A DNA stretch of 64,000 nt from contig CM069147.1 in assembly GCA_035221665.1 (NCBI GenBank), forward strand, positions 12,524,001-12,588,000, read 5' to 3'. Position 1 is the stretch's first letter; every line of letters starts with the position of its first letter. The position numbers and the translations under genes were made by a program. Shown piece by piece: positions 3,712-58,909 of this stretch. The stretch is from Okamejei kenojei. Lineage: Eukaryota. The notes under the pieces were generated by a model. That model was not told the DNA's origin. It searched no databases and saw only the letters and a program-made list of their open reading frames with translations.

Positions 3712-3912
<201 letters not shown>

Positions 3913-4545
3913 TAAATATTTATCGTGTTGAGATAATCAAGATTTAAAATGTCAGAATGCGGTTTTGTGTTTTGGCAATATATATATATTTTTTAAATTC
4001 CCTGTATTCTATAAGAAATCTCTCACTGTTAGGTTCCAGCATTTTGTTTCATACAATAGCAGAGAAAATTTGCCGTGCTATTTGTGGCAAAAACAACTTG
4101 TTCAGACCTACATAACGGTCATATTTGGTCATATTTTTATCCATGATATAACAGAAAGCAAAACCTTATGATATGAGGGCTAGTTTACCTTTTGTGTGGG
4201 CAGAAAATATCAAACACATTTGGCGGGTGAAAATGACAAATGACCCGACTGTGATGGAGACGAGCAATGAAAAAAGTAATCAAATTTCCATTAAAGAACC
4301 TTGGTGATGGTGTAACGTGGGCTCACTATTCCCCAACCTGCACTTAATTCTGGGGACAATTGGTCTATGAAACCAGTTCTTGGGCCATTGTTCCACAGGG
4401 TCTGACCAGTGAACGCAAGTTCCACCTTCAGAATTATTGTAGTAACCAATTAAGCCACTCTGTCAACATTTTTTTTAACTGTCATCTAAATATTGAAAGT
4501 TCTTCATTCTATTAATAATACTAATAAAATTATAAACACTAAACT

Positions 4546-6450
4546 TGGGACGGGTTGCACCTAAACTGGAGGGGGACCAACATCCTAGCGGGAAGGTTTG
4601 CTAATGCTATACCGGGGAAGGGTTAAACTAGATTGGTAAGGGGGTGGGATATCGTATAGGACAGAGGCTAGAAGTTGGTATGGAGGGTGGTGTGGAAAAC
4701 GTTAGTGGACAGAATAGGCAGGTGAAAGGCTGAGAGCGAAGAAGGAAGGTTGGTGTAAACTGCACGTATTTTAATGCAAAGGGCCTGACGGGTAAGGCAG
4801 ATGAGCTTAGGGCATGGATAGGTACATGCGACTGAGACGTAGCCATCACTGAAACCTAATTTATGGGCGGTTTCATAATTTATGGGCAGGACTGGCAGTT
4901 CAATGTTCTGGGATATAGGAGTTTCAGGAGAGACAGGTGAGAGAAAAAGAGAAGGGGGGTTGCCATTGTTGGTTAAGGAGGATGTCACGGCTGTGTTCAG
5001 AGGTGACGCTACGGGTGGTTCGTCTAGTAAGGCTATATGGGTGGAGCTGAGGAACAAGAAAGGGATGATCACCTTGTTGGTGGTGTACTACAGACCCCCA
5101 AATAGTCAACGGGAATTAGAAGAACAAATGTGCTGGGAGATTGCAGGCAGCTGCCTGTCAGAAAAGGTGGTTGTAGTAGGGGATTTTAACTTTTCCAATA
5201 TAGACTGGGAAAAATCATAGCTTGTGAACGGTTTAGATAGGGTGCAATTCTATAAAAGTGTTTTTGAAGACGTGATTAAAATGGTTGATGAGGGCAGAGC
5301 TGTAGGTGTTGTGCACATGGACTTCAGTAAGGTGTTCGACAAGGTTAGGCATGGTAGGTTGCTCTGGAAGGTTAGATCTCACGGGATCCAAGGAGAGATT
5401 ACTGAATGAATAACAAATTGGCTTGATGGAAGGAAGCATGGTGATGGTGGAATGTAGCTTCTCGGACTGGAGTCCTTGACTAGTCGTGTGCCTCAGGGTT
5501 CGGTGTTGGGCCCATTACTGTTTGTCATCTACATCAATGATTTGGATGAGAACTTACAGGGCAAGATTAGCGAGTTTGCTGATGATACAAAAGTTAGTGG
5601 TTTTGCAGATAGTGAAGATGGTTGTGAAAGATTGCAGCAGGATCTGGATCGCTTGGCCAGGTGGGTTGAGGAATGGTTGATGTTGCATTTTGGGACGGTG
5701 AACAAGGGCAGGACCTACACAGTGAATAGCAGGCCTCTGGGTAGAGTTGTAGAGCAAGGGGGTTCGAGGAGTGCAGGTGCATTGCTCCTTGAAGGTCGAG
5801 TCGCAGGTAGATAAGGTGGTCAAAAGGTTTTTGGCACTTTGGCCTTCATCATTCAGATTATTGAGTGTAGAAGTTGGGAGGTCAGGTTGGACTTGTATTG
5901 GTAAGACTGCATTTAGAAAATTGTGTTCAGTTCTGGGCACCAGGTTATAGGAAAGATATTGTCAAGCTTGAAAGGGTTCAGAAAAGATTTACAAGGATGT
6001 TTCCAGGACTAGAATGTGTGAGCTATAGGGGGAGGTTGAGTAGGCTGAATCTCTATTCCATGGAGCGCAGGAGGATGAGGGGGGATCTTAGAGTTATACA
6101 AAATCATAAGAATAGATCGGGTAGATGCACAAAGTCTTTAGCCCACAGTAGGGGAATCGAGGACCAGAGGACATAGGGTTCAAGGTGAAGGGGAAAATAT
6201 TTAATAGGAATCCGGGGGATAACCTTTTCACACGATGGGTGTATGGAACAAGCTGCCAGAGGAGGTATTTGAGGCTGGGACTATTGCATCATTTAAGAAA
6301 CAGTTAAAGCGGTCGGTACATGGATAGGACAGGTTTGGAGGGATATGGACCAAGTGCAGGCATAGGGGACTTGTGTAACTGTGACATTGTTGGCAGTGTG
6401 GGCGACTTGGGTCGAAGGGCCTGTTCCACACTGTATCGCCTATGACTCTA
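4546..6450 (+). mobile_element. CR1 LINE, internally deleted (ORF1 esterase end, APE endonuclease, RT)
   Basis: DGLHLNWRGTNILAGRFA (SGNH esterase-like), YYRPPN/VVGDFNF (APE), [22 protein letters not shown] and FADDTK (RT). Multiple stops and frameshifts. Confidence 0.92.
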
Positions 6451-6502
6451 TTAATGTTAAAATAATTAAAGTTTTCAAACAGTGGAAAGGTATATCAACA
6501 GA

Positions 6503-6682
6503 TAATAGGTGTGTGTGTGGCCATTCGGCCCTTCGAGCCAGCACAGCCATTCAATGTGGTAATGGCTGATCACAATCGGTATCCCGTTCCTGCCTTCTCC
6601 CCATATCCCCTAACTCCACTATCTTTAAGAGCCCTATCAAGCTATCTCATGAAAGTATCCAGAGAACCGGCCTCCACTGCCG
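6503..6682 (-). mobile_element. CR1 3' end fragment
   Basis: ggccattcggcccttcgagcc...ccttctccccatatcccc is the reverse complement of the CR1 tail seen elsewhere in the window. Confidence 0.8.
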
Positions 6683-6751
6683 TCATATGTTTTAATTTTA
6701 GTTGCTAGTTAAAATCATGTAAGCAAGCTCACACGCGGGCCTAGTGGACGA

Positions 6752-6995
6752 TAACATCGGAGGCCTGGATCGCCTCAGCGCAGAGGGAGATCAAGGAGGG
6801 AAGAAGACAAAGACTTTAAGACTTTTGCCCTCCACCACAGTGAGGAGGTGCTTGGTGAACTCACTGTGGTGGATGTTCAATATGTGTTTATTGTGTGTTT
6901 TGTTTTTTATAATATGTTATGACTGCAAGGTAACAAAATTTCGTTCAGACCGAAAGGTCTGAATGACAATAAAGGATACTTTACTTTACTTTACT
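6752..6995 (+). mobile_element. Hairpin-bearing interspersed repeat (SINE or LINE 3' UTR), copy 1
   Basis: Homologous to 33140-33365 and 63828-64000. Two stem-loops, AATAAA and a (TTTAC)n tail. Confidence 0.7.
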
Positions 6996-7699
6996 CTCCC
7001 CACAATAGGTTGAGAGAGTAAAGAGAGGAAATTGGTGAGGCCTTGACAAAGATATTCAAATCCTCTCTAGCTACAGACCATCCCCAGGAAGACTAAAGAG
7101 TAGCCATTGGTGTTCCTTTGTTTAAGAAGGGAAATGGAGATAATCCAGGACGTATGGAATATATATAACTATGGAGATATGGCTATATATAGGTGCTGGC
7201 CCTGCAGCCAATATACTTGAAAATATAGTTAGCATTCTTCCAGTGAATGTGGTTAATCCACTGCAGATATTGTTGGTTTAGTAATGAATATGTGTTGACT
7301 GATATTCTAGAATGTGCTAATTTAAATTGGTGACTAGTAGAGGATGCCTAAAATGTATATGAGATAGTAACATTTAGGACATTTTGGAGCATTTCCTTGT
7401 TCTGACCTCACTACTGAAAAGAAATGGAGTAAGGCTTGGTATTTCTATTATTTGGTATTGTGTGCCAAATTATTGTTTGTCCTCTTTATTGCTTACTATT
7501 CAAATACATATAACTGTAAGTAATCACCACTGCACTAAAAATGTAACTTCTTATGAATCTGCAGCTGGTGAATGAACTTTACTTAAAATATGTGTTTAGG
7601 AAAAAATGTTTAGTTAAATCTGCCTGATAAAAATAATTAGTTTTCATTTTATTTAAACTGCAGGGGGATGAATAAATTGCATCATTCTAAAACTGAAAT

Positions 7700-8347
7700 T
7701 TGACACACTCATTTACAAATTGTGTAAAAATTACAAAATTTTGGATATAAATATTTAGGATAATTTCGAATGTTGTTAATATGAACCTGACTCTTGACTC
7801 AAAGTTAATAATACTGGGAATACTGGAAACAGATCAATTAATAACAACAAATCAAATAATTTTTATTGATTATAGTTTAATAATTGGGAAAAAAATAATA
7901 TTAAAATTCTGGAAAGGTCCTACATCCCCACAATCAAAATGTGGAATACAGAAATGTCGGAGACACTCCATCTGGAAAGATTGAGGCTCGTCCTAATGGA
8001 CTGGTTGGATCTTTTCAGAGGGATATGGTCTCCATATATTGAATATCTACAGGGTCAAAATGGCTCGGTGCGAGAGCCTGACTGAGACCTGAATAATAGA
8101 ATAGATGAAGAATTACGTATAACAAATCATGGATATATCTCCAACGATGGATAACTTTTTAACACTGCATTTACTTCCTTATTTTCGATTTTTTACCTCT
8201 ATTATTTTTCTCTATCCTTTCTTACTTATTAAAAAAAAATGTATAGAAATATAAAGTCTTAAATGTTAATATTAATAATATTATGAACGTATGTAAGAAG
8301 TATTTTCTATTAATATGTATTTACAACTAATAAAAAATATTCATCAG
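7700..8347 (+). mobile_element. 5'-truncated L1-clade LINE with 12-bp TSD
   Basis: Closely matches the 3' end of the copy at 41422-43191. TSD TAAAACTGAAAT at 7688-7699 and 8348-8359. Confidence 0.9.
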
Positions 8348-8435
8348 TAAAACTGAAATCAATTGTTGTAAACCTAAGCATGCAGTGGTGAAATAATGAA
8401 ACAACAATATTAAAATAGGGTTTTTGCAATTGTAG

Positions 8436-8569
8436 GTACTAAACCACATAAGTGCCCTGATTGTGATATGGCATTTGTAACCAGTGGAGAATTGGTGAGG
8501 CACCGTCGCTACAAACACACCCATGAGAAGCCATTTAAATGTTCCATGTGTGACTATGCTAGTGTGGAG
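8436..8569 (+). CDS. CTCF: CTCF coding exon (ZF3, start of ZF4)
   Basis: tgtag|GT...GAG|gtaaga. Translates [45 protein letters not shown]. Phase matches both neighbouring exons. Confidence 0.98.
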
Positions 8570-9150
8570 GTAAGAGTGAAATATTAAATCTTTGTCTTCG
8601 TTAGATTTTATGAAACATTAGCAGGATTGAAATTAATGTATACCTTTTAAAGAAATAAAAAACTAATATGTACAAGGACTTCTGATGGGATTCCCTTGTT
8701 AGGGAAACATTAATGTATGGTACATTATTGAGTATGGTGCAGAAACAACAGTTGAACTTAATTTTGTAGCATTTCACGCTTTATGGAAGTATTGTAATGA
8801 ACAATATTGAAGACAAATGTATTTGAAATTTATTAAAAATGCCGTTCAAATGTCCACAAGACAAAGATAGAATGGAATGAATGCTGTTTAACAATTTGAA
8901 TTAGTGTTTCAAAATTAAATGTAAATAATATGGTAATCTACTTTCAAATTAACATTGATCTTGAGAAGACTGTCCAAAATAATGTATTTTGGGAGGTTTG
9001 GTAATGATATTGGGCACCAAAATGTAAATACAGTCAATAGATTGAAGTGATAATTAGTTGAACAAAAAGAGTGAGTGATTGAATAATTAATTGGGCCAAA
9101 GTTATAATACTCCGTTATAAAATGTTCTTATTCTCAGCACTAAAGGGTAA

Positions 9151-9396
<246 letters not shown>

Positions 9397-9796
9397 TAAT
9401 TTATGTTTCTGGCAGAGTTAAATTATTTTAGAGCTAGTAAAGAAAATAATTGGTGATGTTACATTGTAATGTCACATCAGGTAATGTTCAGACCTTTATT
9501 TATAGCTTGGTATTCCTTTACAAAGTTCTTCTCAACAACGGGTACTATTCTCAGATGTGCCATTTCCAGAGTATTGGAGGAGGATAATTATCAGAATCCA
9601 TATGAGATAACGATGTAGGTGTTGCATTTTGGACAAATGCAGGCCCACACCAATCTCTTGCTCCAAGTAATGATGCCGTGATGATATATTTATCACCTTT
9701 AAAGACTAGCTTCAACATTTAACCAAGCTTTATCCAGTGATAAAGCTGGACAATCTCACGTGTGTAATGAAGCTTTCTCTCTGAAAATTCTAGTTT

Positions 9797-10088
9797 TGTT
9801 TAGAAATACAGCGCGGAATCAGGCCATTTAGCCCACCGAGACCGCTCCGACCAACGATCCACGCTCATTAATACTACCCTACACACTAGGGACAATTTAC
9901 ACTTACACCAAGCCAATTAACCTACAAACCTGTACGTCTTTGGTGTGTGGGAGGAAGCCGAAAATATCTGATAAAACCCACACAGTCACGGGGAGAACGT
10001 ACAAACTCCATACAGACAGTAGTCGGGATTGACCTGGATCTCCTGCACTGTAAGGTAGCAGCTCTACCGCTGCGCCACCTTGCTGCCC
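9797..10088 (-). mobile_element. tRNA-derived V-SINE
   Basis: Minus strand has a GGTGGCGCAGCGGTAGAG head and the V-domain GGAGTTTGTACGTTCTCCCCGTG...CCTCCCACAC. Many copies occur in the window. Confidence 0.85.
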
Positions 10089-10239
10089 AGTATGCTTCAT
10101 TTTTAACATTGAAGCAAATCATTTGGTGTTAAAACTCATAAATGTTTTAGTGTAAATTTTGTTGCTTTGTTGCACACAAAAAGTGTGCAAAACTACCATT
10201 CATTGTACGAATCTTTAGCAGAGTATTCTTCTAGTGTGA

Positions 10240-10434
<195 letters not shown>

Positions 10435-11374
10435 TAAATGTGTTTCCAGGCCAATGCCATTTCAAATTTATTTTGTATACATTTGTAGCAAATAGTCATA
10501 TACAATACATAAACAATATTATCCAAGCAAACATTAGTGAGGGACACGCACAATGTCTTCAAAGCTAAGGTTTTGCTCCATGTGATCTGTAATTCATTGA
10601 ATTTTGTGGGAACAAAAATATTAACGTAACACTTAGGTTCATACACTTTGCTTTTCACCCGAATGTGCTCGCTATGTTTACTTTCGTTTCTTCGTTCATT
10701 CTTTCCCTTCTATTATCTCCAAAGAAAAACACCAAAAAAAATTATAGAGAGCATTGAAAAGCTATACACTATAGAACTTTGATAGTAGATAAAATAAATG
10801 TCTGATTTCTTGGGCTGAACAAGACGTACTTGCATGAAGTACAATTTTTTTTAATTTTTGTTTAATGCAATGATGCTAGGAGGAGACCATTGTAGGCACA
10901 TGCTTGTTCCTATTTAATCCTATCATCACATTGCTTGACTGCGTGCATACAATATCGCCGTTATATTTTTTGGCTACCAATTCCAAATAACTACTTGTAA
11001 GATCCATTTTCTGATGGGCAAAGAAAAATAATTTAACTTCAATACTTGTTGTCATAGAGAAGAGAAGCATTTTATTGTCACTAAGTAAGCTTTTCGTTTT
11101 GTTTCTTATATGCTTTGACTAAGATTTTATATTACGTTATATTAGCAGTGTGGTAAAAAGTAAATTAAGATTTGTCACTGCATTAACGTGACATTACTGT
11201 TTTTTACACCTAATTTATTTCTCGTTGTTATTTGTCTTTTTTCGGAGATTTGTGTAATAGACTCACTCAAAACAATGATTCAAAAATTTCAAAAAAATAT
11301 CTGGCACAGAGCATCACATAGGATGCTTGTGGTACATTCAGAATCTTTCTTATTTCCGCCATATAGTGAGATAA

Positions 11375-11623
<249 letters not shown>

Positions 11624-12067
11624 TAGTTGAAACACCCGTATTAATTTAACTGTGGGTGGCAGGGTGGTATATTTAGTACATTTTAGGTTTTTATGATGAC
11701 AGTTTTAGATCAGAGAAATTGAAATTCTGGGGAATTTTACTTCATAGAAAGTCGGTCAGTGGGAATGTGGTAACATGGATATGGAACTTGGTTCTGAATT
11801 AAATGTGGCTCGCGTCAATCTGTGCAGTGTAAATGATGAAGAAATAATCTACAAGTAGTGGAAAATTAGCAATTTTGCTGAGAAATAGAATGGATTTTGA
11901 ACTGCCAATTTTTTCATCATGAATAAGTGGTAGGTGTGCATTTTGAATTAAAGTAATGATAGAGATGCTCATGGCAAGGGCCAAAAGTAATTTGTCAAAT
12001 GTTCATAACCTTTCGGTGCATGCCATATTACTTACTATGTTAATGCTGTTCCATTTCTTTCCTGCAG

Positions 12068-12250
12068 GAACGTCACATGGTGATGCACAAACGTACTCAT
12101 ACTGGAGAAAAGCCTTATTCATGCAACCAGTGTGATAAAACCTTTCGGCAGAAACAACTGTTGGACATGCACTTCAAGCGCTACCATGATCCTAGTTTTA
12201 TTCCTGCTACGTTTATGTGCTCAAAATGTTCAAAAGCCTTCACTCGTAAG
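12068..12250 (+). CDS. CTCF: CTCF coding exon (ZF9-ZF11)
   Basis: ctgcag|GAA...AAG|gtatca. Translates [61 protein letters not shown]. Confidence 0.98.
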
Positions 12251-12781
12251 GTATCAAATATCTTAGATTTGTTCATTGCTAGCAGGTTATGTACAAATGT
12301 ACAAAAAAAATACTAGAAAAAATGGAAGGTTTTGAAGGAGGGTTGTAGTGATGTGCTGCTCCTTCACAAATTAACATTACTTTTTTTCATTTGTGAATAG
12401 CACTTTTTTTTTTTCAAGAGCACATTTTGGTGCTTGTTTCCCCCAAGCGTAGTACTTTCCTAAGCAGTACTTTTCAATTGAAGGGAAACATATTTATCGA
12501 AAGTATTTGAAGTCACGGCGCAAGGAAAAAAGACCACTGAATCCATACTGACCATCAGCACCCGTCTACACTAATGATGTGTATAGGACCTCTTCTATTG
12601 CAGGCTGGGTTCTGGAATCCTAGCTTAATCACCATAACTTTGCTTGTTTGTAAGTAATCAAGTGCAAAAGCATATCTAAAACTGATGGAGATACATCAAT
12701 GGGCTCCATACAGTCACACCAAAATATCTTCAACTACTGTTAAAATATGTTAGTCTGCTTTTGAAACAATATAGTTTTACT

Positions 12782-13735
12782 GGGGAGAAGGAATGGGTGA
12801 TGTTTCAGGTCGTGACCCCCTGTTCAAACTGTTTGAAACATCACCCATTCCTTCTCTCCAGGGATGCTGCCTGTCCCGCTGAGCCACTCCAGCATTTTGT
12901 GTCTATCTTTGGTTTAAACCAGCATCTGCAGTTCTGAAGAAGGGTCTCGACCCAAAACGTTACCCATTCCTTCTCTCCAAAGATGCTGCCTGTCCCCTTC
13001 AGAGCTATCAAGTAGTACGGATTTTCTGTCAGTTTAACGCGTGGGAATTTAAACGAAGAAATGTCGGCTGCGCGCTGTGGGTTCTAAATATAGCGCTACC
13101 GCTGGAGCTCTATGGGCTTTAAACACAGCGCTATGGCCACAGACTGTTCAGGGAAATTCTCGTATAACAATGAGTCTTTGGAATTCTCTTTGAGCCTTTG
13201 ATTATTTTTCAGGCAGTGGTAGAATTCTGGATAAGTCTAGTGGTGAAAGGTTACCAGTGGGATTGCAGTTACATTAGGATTGGCCTTGATTTTACAGAAC
13301 GGTCGATGGGTTCAAGGGAGAGAGGGAGAGGAGGGAGGGAATAAGAGGGAGGAAGAGGGGGAGGGTGGGAGGGAGGGGGAGAGAGAAAGAAAGGGAGTGA
13401 GGGAGGGAGAGGGATGCTTCCAAAATGGCTTCTACATCATCATCTGGTGCTAAAAGCAGGAAGCAGCCATTCAAACAGCATTATGCAAAGAGATGGCAAT
13501 GAATGCGCTGTCAAGTACAGTGCGTAGAAGACGTGCCAATTGGTAGCAAAATTATGCATTCGTGTACTCTTACATGGGTATGACCACACATTTAAAAAAT
13601 ACATTTTTTTCCACAAAAATACTGATTTCCTCAGCAAAATACTGATTTTCAGATACTAGAATACTGAAATGCTCTGACAAAACTTGGCAGCTGAGTTACT
13701 CCAGCATTTTTTGCCTATCTTCGGTTTAAACCAGC
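12782..13735 (+). mobile_element. Tandem Penelope pLTR-derived repeats interrupted by a TIR element (about 13000-13693)
   Basis: Inverted plus tandem copies of the 'cacccattccttctctcca...ctgagttactccagcatttt...aaaccagca' repeat. The insert has imperfect TIRs CAGAGCTATCAAGT / ACTTGGCAGCTG. Confidence 0.65.
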
Positions 13736-14022
13736 AGAAATCGATAGCAGAAATTGAAAATGCTAGTAATATACCACAGGTTATTTAGAGTCAGATGAAT
13801 GCATCTTGGGTGACGTATTTTCAGCATTTATATCTTTTTCATGTAAAGTTGGACTGCTGGTTAATCCCACACCATAAAGAAAAGAATGCAATATTTAGAA
13901 TGTTAATGCGGTTATTGTATTTTTTCCAAAAGTTGGAATCAAATTAGTGTTTTTGTTAACTGAAGTTTTTTTGCATTAAAAAATTCAAGTACATATTGAT
14001 CTTCCTGCTTTGCATTTTGCAG

Positions 14023-14158
14023 AATACGATGACAAAACATGCTGAGAATTGTAGTGGACCAGGAGGCGAGGAAGGAGATGCAGCAGAACGCAAGAAGAGC
14101 AAGGGACGAGGGAGGAAGCGGAAAATGCAATCTAAGAAAGGAGATTCTTCTGATAGTG
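14023..14158 (+). CDS. CTCF: CTCF coding exon (end of C2HC ZF11, basic RNA-binding segment)
   Basis: ttgcag|AAT...AGTG|gtaatt. Translates [45 protein letters not shown]. Confidence 0.97.
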
Positions 14159-15014
14159 GTAATTTTGTGCTCTACTCTGAAGTATTCTGCAGTAGCTTAA
14201 CAAACCTGAATAGAAAATCCTTATTCAAATATCTGTATTATCTCTATAGAAAGTGAGATTGGGCAGGTGGTTAGAAATTTTCCAACACACCAATTCAGGA
14301 ATGTAATTTACTTAATGGACTTCAATTCTGTATACCTCATTGAATGCCACGTAGATTCGGCAGAAGATAGTTACTGATCTATTTTTGTTTGCTTTGTAAG
14401 AGGATAATACTTATGACCAAGACCTGCTACTCTCAAGCCTATATATAATTAATTGAGGTTGAAACAATTGAAAACTTCCTGTATTTAATTAAATTATGCA
14501 GTCAGCAGTTTAAATGTTGATTTCATTGACATTTATTGATTATTGCTTGGTTGCTCATTATCTTCCCAATTTCTAATATTTCATTTTCCATATTCCACTG
14601 TAAGCATGTATTTCAGCTATAAAACATAGTTTACCTGAAAGCTTTAGTTTTACTTTTTTGCAATTGGCTTGGGATTTCCACTTTGTTTTCTACTTCAAAA
14701 CATTGTGAACTGTGGACAGGTGGTAGAAATGACAAGAAAAATCTAAATATTTAAAGCGATGATATGAGGGGAAAATAGAGAAGTATCTAGAGGTTTGATA
14801 TTTTAATATTTGTCACTCTTCTATTAATAGTAGTTACTTTTCCATATTGTACATTCTTTGTCATTTTGTTTTGTGCTCATTGATTTCAGCATTATTCAGT
14901 AGACTTCACACTTTTTAAAAATTAGATAAACAAGTTTTTTCCTAAATTAGATGAACAAGTTACTTTGCGGTGATGCTTGAATGTTCCTTTGTTTTTACGA
15001 TGATACTTTTGTAG

Positions 15015-15209
15015 ATGAAGATGATATGGCTGAACCTGAACTAGATGGAGATGAAGATGATGAGCCAGATGTGGGCAAGGCTGAGAAAGAGGAAGATGAG
15101 GAGGATGAGGAGGAGCCTCCTGTTGTTGAAGTCATCCCAATACCAACGCCAACCAAAAAACGAAGGGGCCGACCACCTGGAAAAAGTAATCAGGCAAACA
15201 AGAATGCTG
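15015..15209 (+). CDS. CTCF: CTCF coding exon (acidic tract and AT-hook-like KRRGRP)
   Basis: ttgtag|AT...GCTG|gtaatc. Translates DEDDMAEPELDGDEDDEP...PTPTKKRRGRPPGKSNQANKNA. Phase 1-1. Confidence 0.95.
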
Positions 15210-16005
15210 GTAATCTACTCTTCTTTAAAATATTTGGAATGTGTCCATAATATGTAGAAATATCCTATTATTGTGTACCTTTGTTCCTGTTTAAATGCTA
15301 GCCGTAGCGGAACAACCCGGCCTTCATGACCAGTGAGGTCAGAAATGGGTAGCTGATGGGAAGAAATGTATTTATGTGTAACTTTTTTTTAAATGACTAT
15401 CTTAAGAATCCCAAAGATGAGAAATGTGGATAATAGTAAGATTAAACGAGAACTTACCATTTCGAAGTTTGATCTTTATTTTATGAGGAGTAACGATGAG
15501 GGATTACGTGAAGAAGCCCCGCCTGGCGCTGGAACGGCATACTTCAAAGCAGCGGCATGAAAAACACAGAACACAATAGCCGGAGTAAGATAGTAAGGCT
15601 CATCATAGATTTAGAACTACCAGATGATCATTTATTTTATGAGGGTGTGGAGTGGAGGGCACGTAATCCCTCATCGTTACTCCTCATAAAATAAAGATCA
15701 AACTTCGAACTGGTAAGTTCTCGTTTAATCTTACTATTTTACTTCGGAGTCACGTGAGTGACTACGTGAAGATTTTGAAGTTTCTGTGTTTTTCATGCCG
15801 TAGAATTCTTCCATACGACAGTCCGGCTAGGTCAACACATACATGAGAAAACCAGACTAGTTTTAGTTCTTTCCATAAATCTTTTAATGATAAAAGAACA
15901 TATAATAACCCTCTTTTATACCCGAGGGAACCATTACAAAGTGAAAAAAGATATAAGTGATAACATAATTGATAATATAAATCAATAGTGAAACAAAGCA
16001 GGTGA

Positions 16006-44672: not shown

Positions 44673-45867
44673 TGTCTGTGAAACGCATTTAAAATTAATA
44701 ATTTGATTTAACTGCCATTATTAATGTAACTGACATGAGTTAAATAGAAACTATAACATTGTGTTTTGCTAAATCAAATGGCTTACCCAGGATATAAAAG
44801 ATTTCAAAATACTGTATTCAAAATATTAACTCCCTCAAATAATTGCTGGAAACATCCACAACAAAGCAACCAAAACAACACTCTTACCTTTGGTAACATT
44901 TATGCATTGGAGTCAAAAGTTATTGCGGATATTGGATTTTCTCTCTGGAACTATTTTGCTACCATGCTGAGAACTATATTCTGCACTCTTGTATCTGTCT
45001 CTCCGCTCTACCATTTGTACCTGTTTGCCTGATTGTATTCATGCATAGTATTATCTGTTTAGTTTGGGTAACACACTATCTCAGTGCACATGAAATAATA
45101 AACCTAACCTCGGTTGTTGATCCAAAGACACTCCAGAAACCTGTCACGTCAGTGCTGTGCTTCAAAAGTACTGCATTGTCAGGATATATATTACAAATAA
45201 GATATTAAACTTAATTCTGTCTGGAATCTAGATTCTGCCTTGAAGATCCTTTTACATTATTTTGGGTAGAATGTGGAGTTTTTCATTTTGATTTTTGTAG
45301 AAGACCGTGTGGTATGTCGGGTAAATTCATGCTCAAGGTGGAATTAGGAGGCAAGTAATAAAATGGTTTGCAAAGTATAAGCAAGTTCGGTATTCCGATT
45401 GCGCGTGCCCAGGTCATAGGTCACTCGTGATAAACGTTCTCGGCAGCTGTGCTGCTGCATGAATACAGGCCTGTGTTTCATCCGTAGTCAGGATGGAACC
45501 CGGGACTCCGGTGCTGCAAGCGCTGTTGAATTGCTACTGGTCCGTCCCCGTCCCTGTCCCCTCCGGGTGTCCTATCCCTGTCTTGGGGCGGCCGGAGATG
45601 TCCCTGGATTGACAGGACACCGGCCCGTTGCAGTGGCGGCCCTGGCTTAAGGCCAGCACGGAGAAGAAGCGCTAACTCCAGCTCAACTTTGCCTGTCCTG
45701 CCAGGTTAACCGACAGCCCTGGACTGACGGGACACCGGACCAGAGCAGTGAGGTAGCGCTTCTTGTATGCACATGTATAACCACAAACCGACAAATGAAT
45801 AAACAATGACTGTGCACCGTCAAATAGAATGCCCCAGTTCTAGAAGGAAGGATCTGGGATGAGCATT

Positions 45868-46005
45868 CTTCTTCTTGCGTATGGCGTGCACAGCCTAAAG
45901 TCGCAGGACAACTTGTTCTGTGTGATCTTATTTGATTGTGCATGCCGGGTTGATTGCATTCGTCGAAACAAGGCAGACCACGTGAAGGTTGCAATCTCCC
46001 ACCCC
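45868..46005 (-). mobile_element. 138-bp non-autonomous retroelement with ribozyme head and (AAG)n tail
   Basis: TSD GGGAT(G/A)AGCATT at 45856-45867 and 46007-46018. The minus-strand 3' end reads CTGTGCACGCCATACGC(AAG)n. Confidence 0.8.
45952..46005 (-). ncRNA. Minimal HDV-like (CPEB3-type) self-cleaving ribozyme
   Basis: GGGGUGG(P1) GA GAUUGCA(P2) ACC(P3) UUCACGU(L3) GGU(P3') CUGCCUU(P1') GU UUCGA CGAA(J4/2) UGCAAUC(P2'). P2 and P3 are fully Watson-Crick. P1 has 3 G-C and 4 G-U pairs. Confidence 0.8.
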
Positions 46006-47759
46006 AGGGATAAGCATTGAAGCTGCTACATTGTAATAGAACTTTAACGGAAGTTCTTTATTAATATTGAGTTGCTTTAAAATCATATTTTGCCATTAAT
46101 TAGAAAAACAATACCTATGTCACAGTTTGCATCCTCTCAATTACAAAAGCAACATGCATCCCACCTCTCATGCTAAATGAGTGAACCTATTTCCTGAGTT
46201 GTTATTTCAATAGGTTCAGAAGTGATAATGTGACAAGTGCGGTAGGTGCACAAATGACAAGGCAAGATAAGAGACAAGAGACATTTATTGTCACATGCAC
46301 CAACCGGTAAAGTTAAATTTGTGGTCAAGTGCAGCTTCAGCCTATGATTCCACTTCCTTGTCAAAAGTTCCCTTATATAGTAAAGAGGCAACTGATATAT
46401 CCACCGCTCAAACAAAGGAGGCAGGTGCATATTCTTGTGTAAAATAATCTATTTGCTTCCTAACGTGTGCGTGACACAAATGAATATTACTTAAAGGTGA
46501 TATCGTTTGCTCAGTGTTTAAAAGTAGCAGTACTCCCACCACATTAATTTGCATGCATATTAATATTGAGGTCTTAAGGCATGGCCTTTGCAATAAGCAA
46601 TTTAACTTTCCTGCACTTACAACAGCATGCATATTTTAAGATGAAAAAAGTAAGCAAAAATCACAAGTTAAAGCTGCACTTGTACCCCTCACAATCATCT
46701 CACCATTTTTGTAACAGGAATAATTTGCAGTTCTATATCAACAGTTACAATACCTGTGATGTTTAAGCAGAACTTGGATGCTGTTTTGTGCTAGATTTGA
46801 GATAATGGCATAAAAATTGAGACTGCAACCAGGCCAATTGAGACTGCAACCAGGCCAATATAACTGTACAATCTGGGTTTCCCTTAAAGATGGTTAAGTC
46901 GTGTAAAAACATAGCAGAGGCTGGGATTGATTTATTCAACCAATGCCATTCAAAGAGAAAGCCTTTGGTAGATAGTAGCGTAAAATGGACAAAATTAGTA
47001 ACATTGTTTCAGCCACACTTTATGTGTGTAGCCTTATTTTAACTTTCCAGTACATACATTTTAAAACTCTGGTTCTCTAAAATATATATATATTTAAGCT
47101 GTACTTTTTAAAAAAAAGAGATTTGTAAAGCACCCAATACTTGTACAGTTACTTTTTGTGTCAACTTAAAACTTATCTGCAAGAGATATTTTAAGCGAAC
47201 AAATACAATCATCTTATTACATATGTTCATATCATGCATTAATTTTAAGAGAATAAACCCAGGGTCTGTCGTGATATTTGGGTTATTGACAACTTCAAAT
47301 GTTATTTCTTTGCTATTATTTATTCTTGGAATGTGAGTAAAGCTAATGGGCCTGCTTTAATTGCCAATCGTAATTCAATCAGTTTAGAAACAGAACATAC
47401 AGGCTTAACTGTATCGTAACAAAGCTCTCCCATCATCCATTAGAACTAGAAGCAAAGAGATCTTTGGAAACTCATAGCATTCAGCAGTTCCATTAATTTA
47501 GCACCTTGCCTCATATTCCTAGTTTCCCAAACAATTCTCGGGACCAACCCGACATTTCCTCTTCTAGAAGATAGGAAAGGTTTAGAGGAATTTGGGCCAA
47601 AGTGGCAAGGTGGGATTAGCATAGATGGGGCATCTTGGTCGGCATGGGCAAGTGGGGATGAAGGGCCTGTTTCTGCGTTGTATGACCGTCTCCAAGATGT
47701 AAGACCACCACCTCTTCTCCAACTTCTAGTGCAAAACTGCTTCTTCCAGATTTTTCAGT

Positions 47760-53047: not shown

Positions 53048-53141
53048 TTCTTTTCCCGGCAGTCCAATCTCGACCACATGGTGGCGCTGATGGTCTTAGG
53101 TAGTCTTCCTCATACCTGCAACAGGGAAACATAACTTGGAG

Positions 53142-53340
53142 GGTACACAAAAAGCTGGAGAAACTCAGCGGGTGCAGCAGCATCTAAGGAGCGAAGGAGA
53201 TAGGCGACGTTTCGGCTGAAGAAGGGTCTCAACCCGAAACGTCGCCTATCTCCTTCGCTCCTTAGATGCTGCTGCACCCGCTGAGTTTCTCCAGCTTTTT
53301 GTGTACCCTCGATTCTCCAGCATCTGCAGTTCCTTCTTTA
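53142..53340 (+). mobile_element. Penelope pLTR-derived fold-back element with 15-bp TSD and hammerhead core
   Basis: Perfect 77-bp inverted arms at 53139-53215 and 53234-53310. TSD AAACATAACTTGGAG at 53127-53141 and 53341-53355. Confidence 0.85.
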
Positions 53341-53915
53341 AAACATAACTTGGAGACATGCAGTCCACTTTATCTCCCTTCCTCACCCTTTTCTTTCTTC
53401 TTTTTTTGTTCTATTTCGTTCATAATATAATCACCATTTTAATATTATTGCCTATGTACTACTAACAGTTATATTGAAGACGATTTCTTATTTTATCTTA
53501 CAAAGATTTCCGCGCTGTATCTCTAAATCTAAAGATAGAAGATTTGATTTTCACAATCTATGACTAGTGGCTGTGACTAGTGGTGTGCCTCAGGGTTCAG
53601 TGCGAGGCCCATTGTTCTTTGTGGTTTATAACACCAAATTGAATGAGAATGTAGAAAATGATTAGTAAATTGAGGTCGGAGGAAGAGGATGATCTTGTTG
53701 AGGTCTATAAAACCATGAAGGGAATAGATGGGGTAAAAACACAGTATTGTACCCAGAATAGAGGAAGAACCAGGGTTTTAAGTTTAAGGTGAGAAGGGTA
53801 AGATTTAATAGGAACCTGAGGATGGTGAGTACATGGAAGGAGCTGCCAATGGAGGTAGTTGAAGCAGGTACTATAATAACATTTAAAAGACATTTGGACA
53901 GATACGTGAATAGGA

Positions 53916-54097
53916 GATAGCCAAAAATGCTGGAGAAACTCAGCAGGTGAGGCAGCCTCTATGGAGCGAAGGAAATAGGCAACGTTTCGGCCCGAAACAT
54001 TGCCTATTTCCTTCTCTCCATAGACACTGCCTCACCCGATGATTTTCTCCAGCATTTTTGTCTACCTTCGATTTTCCAGCATCTGCAGTTCCTTCTT
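53916..54097 (+). mobile_element. Penelope pLTR-derived fold-back element inserted in a CR1 fragment (53570-54225)
   Basis: Imperfect palindrome centred near 53991. TSD ATAC(G/A)TGAATAGGA at 53902-53915 and 54098-54111. Confidence 0.8.
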
Positions 54098-58301: not shown

Positions 58302-58618
58302 TTAAACAAATACAAATACAATATCATAAGGGATTTTTTCTTGTACTAAGAGCTTTTCCTTAATTTGTAATTCTTATGCACGTAAATGGCTGTTAGGGGT
58401 ATGAAGCACTATTGTTGGTTTGAAAGCTTCTGGTCACCATGTAAGCAACTGATTTGGCAGGTACTTCAGTTTACCAGCTGAAGGGTTATTAACGATTATA
58501 ACTCCCGCTTTCCACTGAAGAGCTACAGTAAGTGCTTGTGGTTTCATGGATCACCATTCTTTTTGCTGTCGCAGCCCCCCTCACGTATAACAATTTGTGC
58601 ATCTGCCTTTGTTCTCAG

Positions 58619-58678
58619 GTGGAAAGTTCTTTCAGTTACTTGGAGATCAGTGCAATTGATGTCGCTGATCACAATCAG
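58619..58678 (+). CDS. CARMIL2: CARMIL2 coding exon 4
   Basis: tctcag|GTG...CAG|gtgagt. Translates VESSFSYLEISAIDVADHNQ, containing the CARMIL FSYLE(I/V) motif. The paralog assignment rests on CTCF-CARMIL2 synteny. The gene continues beyond the window. Confidence 0.9.
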
Positions 58679-58909
58679 GTGAGTGTTTCAATTCTTGCTC
58701 TAAGTAAAGCCTCTATTTGTACGCGCTTAACAACACAAAAGTTGTTGTAAAGCATAACAATAAATGTGCTCTACAACCAGTTGGTTGTTTAATATAATGC
58801 TTGTCAAATACATAATACATAATCATAAGTTCGAAGATTTGTTATCAGTTCTAAAAAGTTAAAAAATCTTGAGAAAACCTGCTACTGATCTCTGCAAAGA
58901 AAGAATTGA

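Follow-up and report, generated by a model that had tools for sequence, protein, structure and literature searches.

RTE, Ingi, Vingi and R2 elements all have bipartite non-autonomous LINE derivatives (PMC5786205). In trypanosomes, the NARTc/L1Tc and RIME/ingi systems include short deleted derivatives of Ingi-group LINEs that carry a 5′ HDV-like ribozyme, Pr77/L1TcRz, and L1TcRz cleaves just upstream of the element (PMC4035085). The window analyzed here, a stretch of 64,000 nucleotides from Okamejei kenojei, holds an insert of comparable design: it is a short deleted LINE derivative with a predicted HDV-like ribozyme at its 5′ end, and its predicted cut likewise lies just upstream. Unlike NARTc and RIME, the insert resides in a vertebrate, has a Vingi-type partner without RNase H, measures 138 nt and belongs to a family of about 20,000 copies. 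Unlike L1TcRz, its head, known here from sequence alone, lacks the P4 helix and has an L3 and a P1.1 of the CPEB3 type. Vingi-1_EE derivatives, Bov-A and R2 SIDEs (PMC5786205, PMC3414825) resemble the insert in combining the 5′ and 3′ ends of a parent LINE with no RNA-gene head. Minimal P4-less HDV-like and theta ribozymes resemble its head in the missing P4, a length of about 54 nt and a J4/2 with C first and A last; in PMC10879173 they come almost only from gut phages, next to tRNAs, whereas here the fold heads a vertebrate retroelement. The mammalian CPEB3 ribozyme (RF00622) differs in being single-copy and intronic, and the window family lacks P4, has different helices and gives no match to RF00622.

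Comparison of these sequences makes it highly probable that the element is a non-autonomous, deleted Vingi-type LINE composed of about the first 80 and the last 44 bases of its parent, that its predicted minimal HDV-like ribozyme head likely cuts the RNA free at G1, and that the CPEB3 ribozyme would go back to an older Vingi of the same ribozyme lineage, whose 5′ end became fixed. Internally deleted LINEs are themselves a known category; the surprising parts are the link between Vingi and CPEB3 and the predicted panhandle.

The original prediction described a 138-bp insert with a 12-bp target-site duplication (one mismatch) and an (AAG)n tail. We found exactly this insert on the minus strand at 45868-46005, ending in (AAG)3, with one additional base (46006) between the 5′ copy of the duplication and G1. 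Its reading of the head as a double pseudoknot, with P1, P2, P3, L3, GU, a P4 remnant and J4/2, proved correct to the letter, and its statement that the head has no tRNA, 5S or 7SL origin agrees with the lack of any Rfam small-RNA match and with the assignment of the head to a LINE 5′ UTR. CpG decay, offered as the source of the G-U-rich P1, did not hold: 28 of 30 copies have U at position 5, and in the LINE this base has A as its partner. Two changes, C31U and C35U, are private to the window copy. P1 plus P3 come to a computed −6.7 kcal/mol in this copy, whereas three other copies reach −11.7 to −12.8 kcal/mol, and because of this weaker pairing the window copy is probably decayed.

Table. 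Features of the element in the window (minus strand) and loci with inverted Vingi heads
Feature	Position	Strand	Remarks
Target-site duplication, 5′ copy	46007..46018	-	12 bp
Predicted minimal HDV-like ribozyme	45952..46005	-	54 nt; G1 at 46005; predicted cut between 46006 and 46005
Ribozyme P1, 5′ strand	45999..46005	-	partner 45970-45976; 4 G.U pairs here vs 2 in the family majority
Ribozyme P2, 5′ strand	45990..45996	-	partner 45952-45958; 7 Watson-Crick pairs
Ribozyme P3 and L3	45977..45989	-	3 bp and 7-nt loop; L3 as in the Rfam CPEB3 consensus
G37-U38 and P4 remnant	45963..45969	-	P1.1 partner (one C-G pair and U.U); 5-nt remnant
J4/2 CGAA	45959..45962	-	45962 equivalent to catalytic C75
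5′ UTR-derived part (partner LINE of Vingi type)	45925..46005	-	identity 68/81 to L196, 71/80 to the L189 head
Predicted terminal stem (panhandle), 5′ arm	45937..45946	-	source LINE 5′ UTR
Middle	45912..45924	-	13 nt, aligned to neither LINE end; resembles a short local duplication (by eye)
Part from the LINE 3′ end	45868..45911	-	identity 40/44 to L187; holds the stem 3′ arm (45883-45892) and (AAG)3
Target-site duplication, 3′ copy	45856..45867	-	
Short 5′-inverted Vingi heads beside truncated bodies	L186, L189-L191, L225, L228, L230, L231, L233, L235, L238, L239, L248		

The insert is antisense to a CARMIL gene, one plus-strand frame of which (58532-58747) matches Carm_PH with an E value of 2.8e-4, under the cut-off. 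A plus-strand CARMIL_C exon lies 59 kb past the window end, and a candidate first exon near 34.4 kb, picked by eye, has no Pfam match. The insert thus appears to be intronic in this gene, which we presume to be the paralogue CARMIL2 from synteny with a zinc-finger gene. A single antisense copy carries no information on the orientation bias that the original prediction expected. Exons of a multi-zinc-finger gene, presumably CTCF from its sequence, are present upstream of the CARMIL gene at 3712-15247 on the plus strand. Self-comparison of the window also displayed palindromic elements of some 170 bp, almost perfect inverted repeats, at 53139-53310 and 53909-54097.

To the question whether the sequence is single-copy, the genome gave a clear answer. 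A search with the element returned 2,357 candidates, of which 40 were scored, and the best 30 loci are 94-100% identical. Exact 21-nt words from the head and the tail matched the genome 10,537 and 9,310 times, respectively, and the reversed-pattern controls gave 0 matches. In the first 14.8 Mb of C1, 47 copies are common to the 100 head and 89 tail matches, and from this overlap we estimate the family at about 20,000 copies. Three subfamilies (A, B and C) differ in J4/2 (CGAA or CUAA), in pair 5 of P1 (U.G or U-A) and in the middle region; in subfamily C, LINE nt 1-96 run directly into the 3′ end of the LINE. Two copies stand head to tail at L007:1501-1784 with a repeated target word between them, and at another locus (L002) two copies lie within 600 bp.

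The insert had been described as starting at, or within one base of, the predicted cleavage-site G1, and 5′ ends do pile up there. When the first 30 copies were picked by their tail alone, 29 extended to G1 within one base, in a subtelomeric sample in which two of the 29 represent one duplicated locus. A duplication of at least 9 nt directly adjoins G1 in 22 of these 29 copies, against 36 of 810 shuffled pairings; one copy, wrongly anchored in the automated count, carries a 12-nt duplication. Divergence between copies is only about 5%, too little time for conservation inside the family to be evidence of selection.

The partner was sought with a pattern built on a reverse transcriptase motif taken to mark Vingi-type LINEs, which occurs at 172 places in several families. 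One of these families ends in the short element's own tail. Of 20 sampled copies of this LINE, two, L193 and L196, retain the full length of about 3.05 kb and have the element's head at their 5′ end, while four further copies carry the same head as a short inversion. Nucleotides 1-81 of the window copy align with the LINE 5′ UTR and nucleotides 95-138 with its 3′ end (identities in the table). The broken ORF of the LINE matches Pfam RVT_1 with an E value of 9e-29 and, weakly, APE and zf-RVT, and RNase H was absent among the five partner-LINE frames scanned with Pfam; the nearest intact relative encodes 1,019 aa, 75% identical, with APE and RT only, and no named reference protein came back from that comparison. 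In PMC13708176, a compact single ORF with APE and RT and without RNase H is the Vingi layout, which the partner LINE (3.05 kb, single ORF with APE and RT) shares, although RTE has the same layout and it is not decisive alone. By eye, nt 2-74 of Vingi-2_Gav are nearly identical to the heads of sister families that the same pattern recovered. The partner LINE is assigned to the Vingi type on its architecture, the RT motif and this 5′-end match.

Mobilization of a high-copy element by a LINE, as originally proposed, accords with the fact that both ends are common to one LINE family, and the "RTE-like" mobilizer gives way to a Vingi-type LINE. RTE was dropped as a partner after the LINE sharing both element ends was found. 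The genome's best RVT_1 matches, presumably L1/Tx1-like from their motif, have no end in common with the element, and patterns with negated letters for the LINE ends recovered, among the loci read, only subfamily C and deleted copies. Of the "ribozyme-headed SINE", the ribozyme-type head and the LINE mobilization stand, and the SINE class does not. A novel SINE class that had acquired its ribozyme head independently and was mobilized by RTE would account for a microsatellite-tailed element with neither RNA-gene head nor ORF. It is nevertheless very improbable: a single LINE family has the head at one of its ends and the tail at the other, the full-length L193 and L196 refute it, and a named Vingi head belongs to the same lineage. 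The head is LINE 5′ UTR and not the small-RNA derivative that defines a classical SINE. The element is a bipartite, internally deleted non-autonomous LINE, a category already known.

Covariation in P1-P3 had been proposed as a check; the fold of the head was evaluated across families, and compensatory changes were indeed found. In the majority sequences of six Vingi families (4 to 12 copies each), 99 of 102 P1-P3 pairs are kept while the helix sequences differ, and P2 varies in a compensatory manner at most positions. Constant in all six are the C that starts J4/2, the C-G of P1.1 and a 7-nt L3. The same descriptor applied to random 100-mers gave no fully paired sequence in 1,500 and two short by one pair. 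Within the window family, the catalytic C of J4/2 is C in all 30 tail-selected copies, and G1 forms a wobble with U in 23 of 30. A second short family (L242-L245, L247 and L249; six loci) also lacks P4 and has a 5-nt remnant. In the proposed comparison with Rfam models, the HDV-type RF02682 (HDV-F-prausnitzii) aligned with the window copy in the same register at a sub-threshold 10.3 bits (E 6.5, cut-off 44), and the CPEB3 model RF00622 (gathering cut-off 35 bits) gave no match. Plain MFE folding of the window copy gave no signal (z 0.36), as expected because the fold is a pseudoknot. The G37-C44 hairpin (UUCG loop), a potential competitor of this fold, was rejected as unstable (+1.7 to +2.0 kcal/mol). 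Taken as a model, the head is likely a P4-less HDV-type ribozyme, for which cleavage is predicted.

In the Vingi heads of L212-L214, L3 has UCC in place of UUC and GG replaces GU, which by eye would give a two-pair, HDV-type P1.1 with a 6-bp P1. A further head variant, U29C, begins at G1 in all 7 copies that carry it among the 30 of the subtelomeric sample. It is apparently enriched near chromosome ends, 8 of its 19 matches on C1 falling in the first 17 Mb, perhaps through GC-biased conversion rather than as a source lineage.

We propose that the element is transcribed inside a longer Pol II RNA, that this RNA would self-cleave at G1, and that the short product may then be reverse-transcribed in trans by the Vingi-type LINE. 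Alternatively, the LINE 5′ UTR could hold an internal Pol II promoter that sets the precise 5′ end, the fold being inherited, slow or vestigial in this P4-less lineage and serving mainly to bind protein or protect the 5′ end. Several observations are compatible with such a promoter. In about 6% of one poly(A) RNA run, with 616 reads placed, molecule starts showed no pile-up at the element 5′ end, and 203 reads cross this end into unrelated flanks; one strand was 1.3-2.4 times deeper, a figure given no weight here because the strandedness of the library is not established. Because short elements are easily copied to full length, their 5′ ends would pile up in the same way if a promoter started transcription at G1. 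Pr77 of L1Tc is both promoter and ribozyme (PMC4035085), and the R2 ribozyme fold is described with cap-like protection (PMC13708176). The U29C variant, which breaks one P3 pair, is present in 422 copies by exact head match, but against 10,537 matches this is only 4% of heads genome-wide. The promoter is also hard to reconcile with core letters (the J4/2 C, L3 and the P1.1 G) that stay constant in six families while the helices covary, and with the start of each family at its predicted cleavage site. We regard it as improbable and retain self-cleavage at G1 as the preferred explanation of the 5′ ends.

The two LINE-derived parts of the short element are predicted to pair with each other, nt 60-69 from the 5′ UTR with nt 114-123 from the 3′ end. 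The comparison was extended to the five families with both ends, one of which is known from its short element only, the sixth having no 3′ end. In all five, the strongest partner of the 30 nt behind the ribozyme was the 25-nt stretch just in front of the tail of the same family (−12.8 to −18.4 kcal/mol), in windows that were chosen after the pairing had been seen by eye and with one 3′ copy each for two families. The own 3′ end surpassed those of six other families in all five cases, the closest rival reaching −15.2 against −17.1 kcal/mol. The second short bipartite element, about 165 bp long and with a CPEB3-like head that scores 35-40 bits with RF00622, has a 12-bp terminal stem. Vingi RNA may thus close into a panhandle recognized by the Vingi protein, in which case deletions inside the loop would remain mobile. 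With a head in direct orientation as the reference, the inverted heads of all 13 copies measured span 64-110 nt, and these lengths point to a twin-priming hot spot directly behind the ribozyme and the stem arm.

Regarding the CPEB3 ribozyme, the original prediction had likened L3, the one-pair P1.1 and J4/2 CGAA to those of the mammalian sequence, and L3, GU and J4/2 of the window copy are identical to the Rfam consensus. All helices of the window family differ from CPEB3, with the same segment lengths to G37-U38, L3, GU and J4/2, which makes it, judged by its sequence, a distant cousin of the CPEB3 ribozyme lineage. The suspected relevance to the origin of this ribozyme turned out stronger than had been guessed, through the sister families and not the window family. 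RF00622 yielded 42 matches in this genome among 59 candidates scored, 30 of them above the cut-off, the best with 66.8 bits. Among these 30 loci, four continue into Vingi coding or 3′ sequence, 14 are inverted beside a Vingi body, seven are short elements and five displayed no Vingi link; Vingi coding sequence adjoins 18 of the 30. One head, L222, shares 57 of 67 nt with the Rfam CPEB3 consensus, 44 of them within its first 46 nt (by eye), and the P2 and P4 differences of its related families from CPEB3 are largely compensatory (by eye). No RF00622 match was found in 150 kb over the probable CPEB3 gene of this genome (C15, 7.70-7.77 Mb; one CPEB locus scanned), the paralogue being presumed from an N-terminal motif.

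Beyond this genome, the gharial Vingi-2_Gav (nt 2-74, PMC5786205 supplement) agrees with the CPEB3 consensus at 38/40 and 14/14 positions on the two sides of distal P4, in total 52 of 54 (by eye). In the same supplement, the alligator SINE2-1_AMi, which descends from a head of this kind, has a CPEB3-like P4 stem. The CPEB3-like body of SINE2-1_AMi lies behind a tRNA head and ahead of a small hairpin and the Vingi-type tail motif; its L3 is altered and its P1 shortened, which would make it unable to cut (by eye). PMC5786205 makes no mention of CPEB3. Given that Vingi heads match the CPEB3 consensus and that the probable CPEB3 locus here gives no RF00622 match, the mammalian ribozyme likely arose by exaptation of the 5′ end of an older Vingi that had inserted into the CPEB3 intron of a mammalian ancestor and became fixed there.

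The likeness could instead reflect convergence on a constrained fold, or a Vingi that took its ribozyme from an ancient CPEB3 intron, given that HDV-like folds constrain L3 and J4/2 and that similarity alone does not give the direction of transfer. Convergence is countered by an identity (52/54) that spans the freely covarying P1, P2, P3 and P4 base, when only six nucleotides are invariant across the HDV-like class (PMC8256844). As to transfer from CPEB3, a 2021 study reports the ribozyme in mammalian CPEB3 and not outside mammals (PMC8233481), it is absent at the probable CPEB3 gene here, and Vingi heads of this type occur in six diverged families of this genome and in a crocodilian. We hold both to be unlikely and favor descent of the CPEB3 ribozyme from a Vingi 5′ end. 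The literature searched contained no statement of a Vingi origin for the CPEB3 ribozyme or of the panhandle; Repbase entries and patents lie outside that search, and earlier papers on HDV-like ribozymes or Vingi may already show the likeness.

It seems reasonably probable, as a more general reading, that Vingi 5′ ends carry a lineage of CPEB3-type ribozymes ranging from P4-less forms to near-exact counterparts of the mammalian one, that the CPEB3 ribozyme is a domesticated Vingi end, and that Vingi RNAs form panhandles. If true, the panhandle explains both why two ends suffice in trans and why 5′ inversions start right behind the ribozyme. Vingi heads would provide the missing outgroup for the CPEB3 ribozyme and make its origin a testable claim. 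The P4-less HDV-type fold, so far mainly a phage feature, would now be present in a vertebrate genome at a copy number of about 20,000, and many copies may lie in transcription units. RNA-only gene insertion is a goal for which Vingi proteins are being engineered (PMC13708176), and the natural 138-nt template may represent a minimal cis module for them, consisting of ribozyme, terminal stem and tail.
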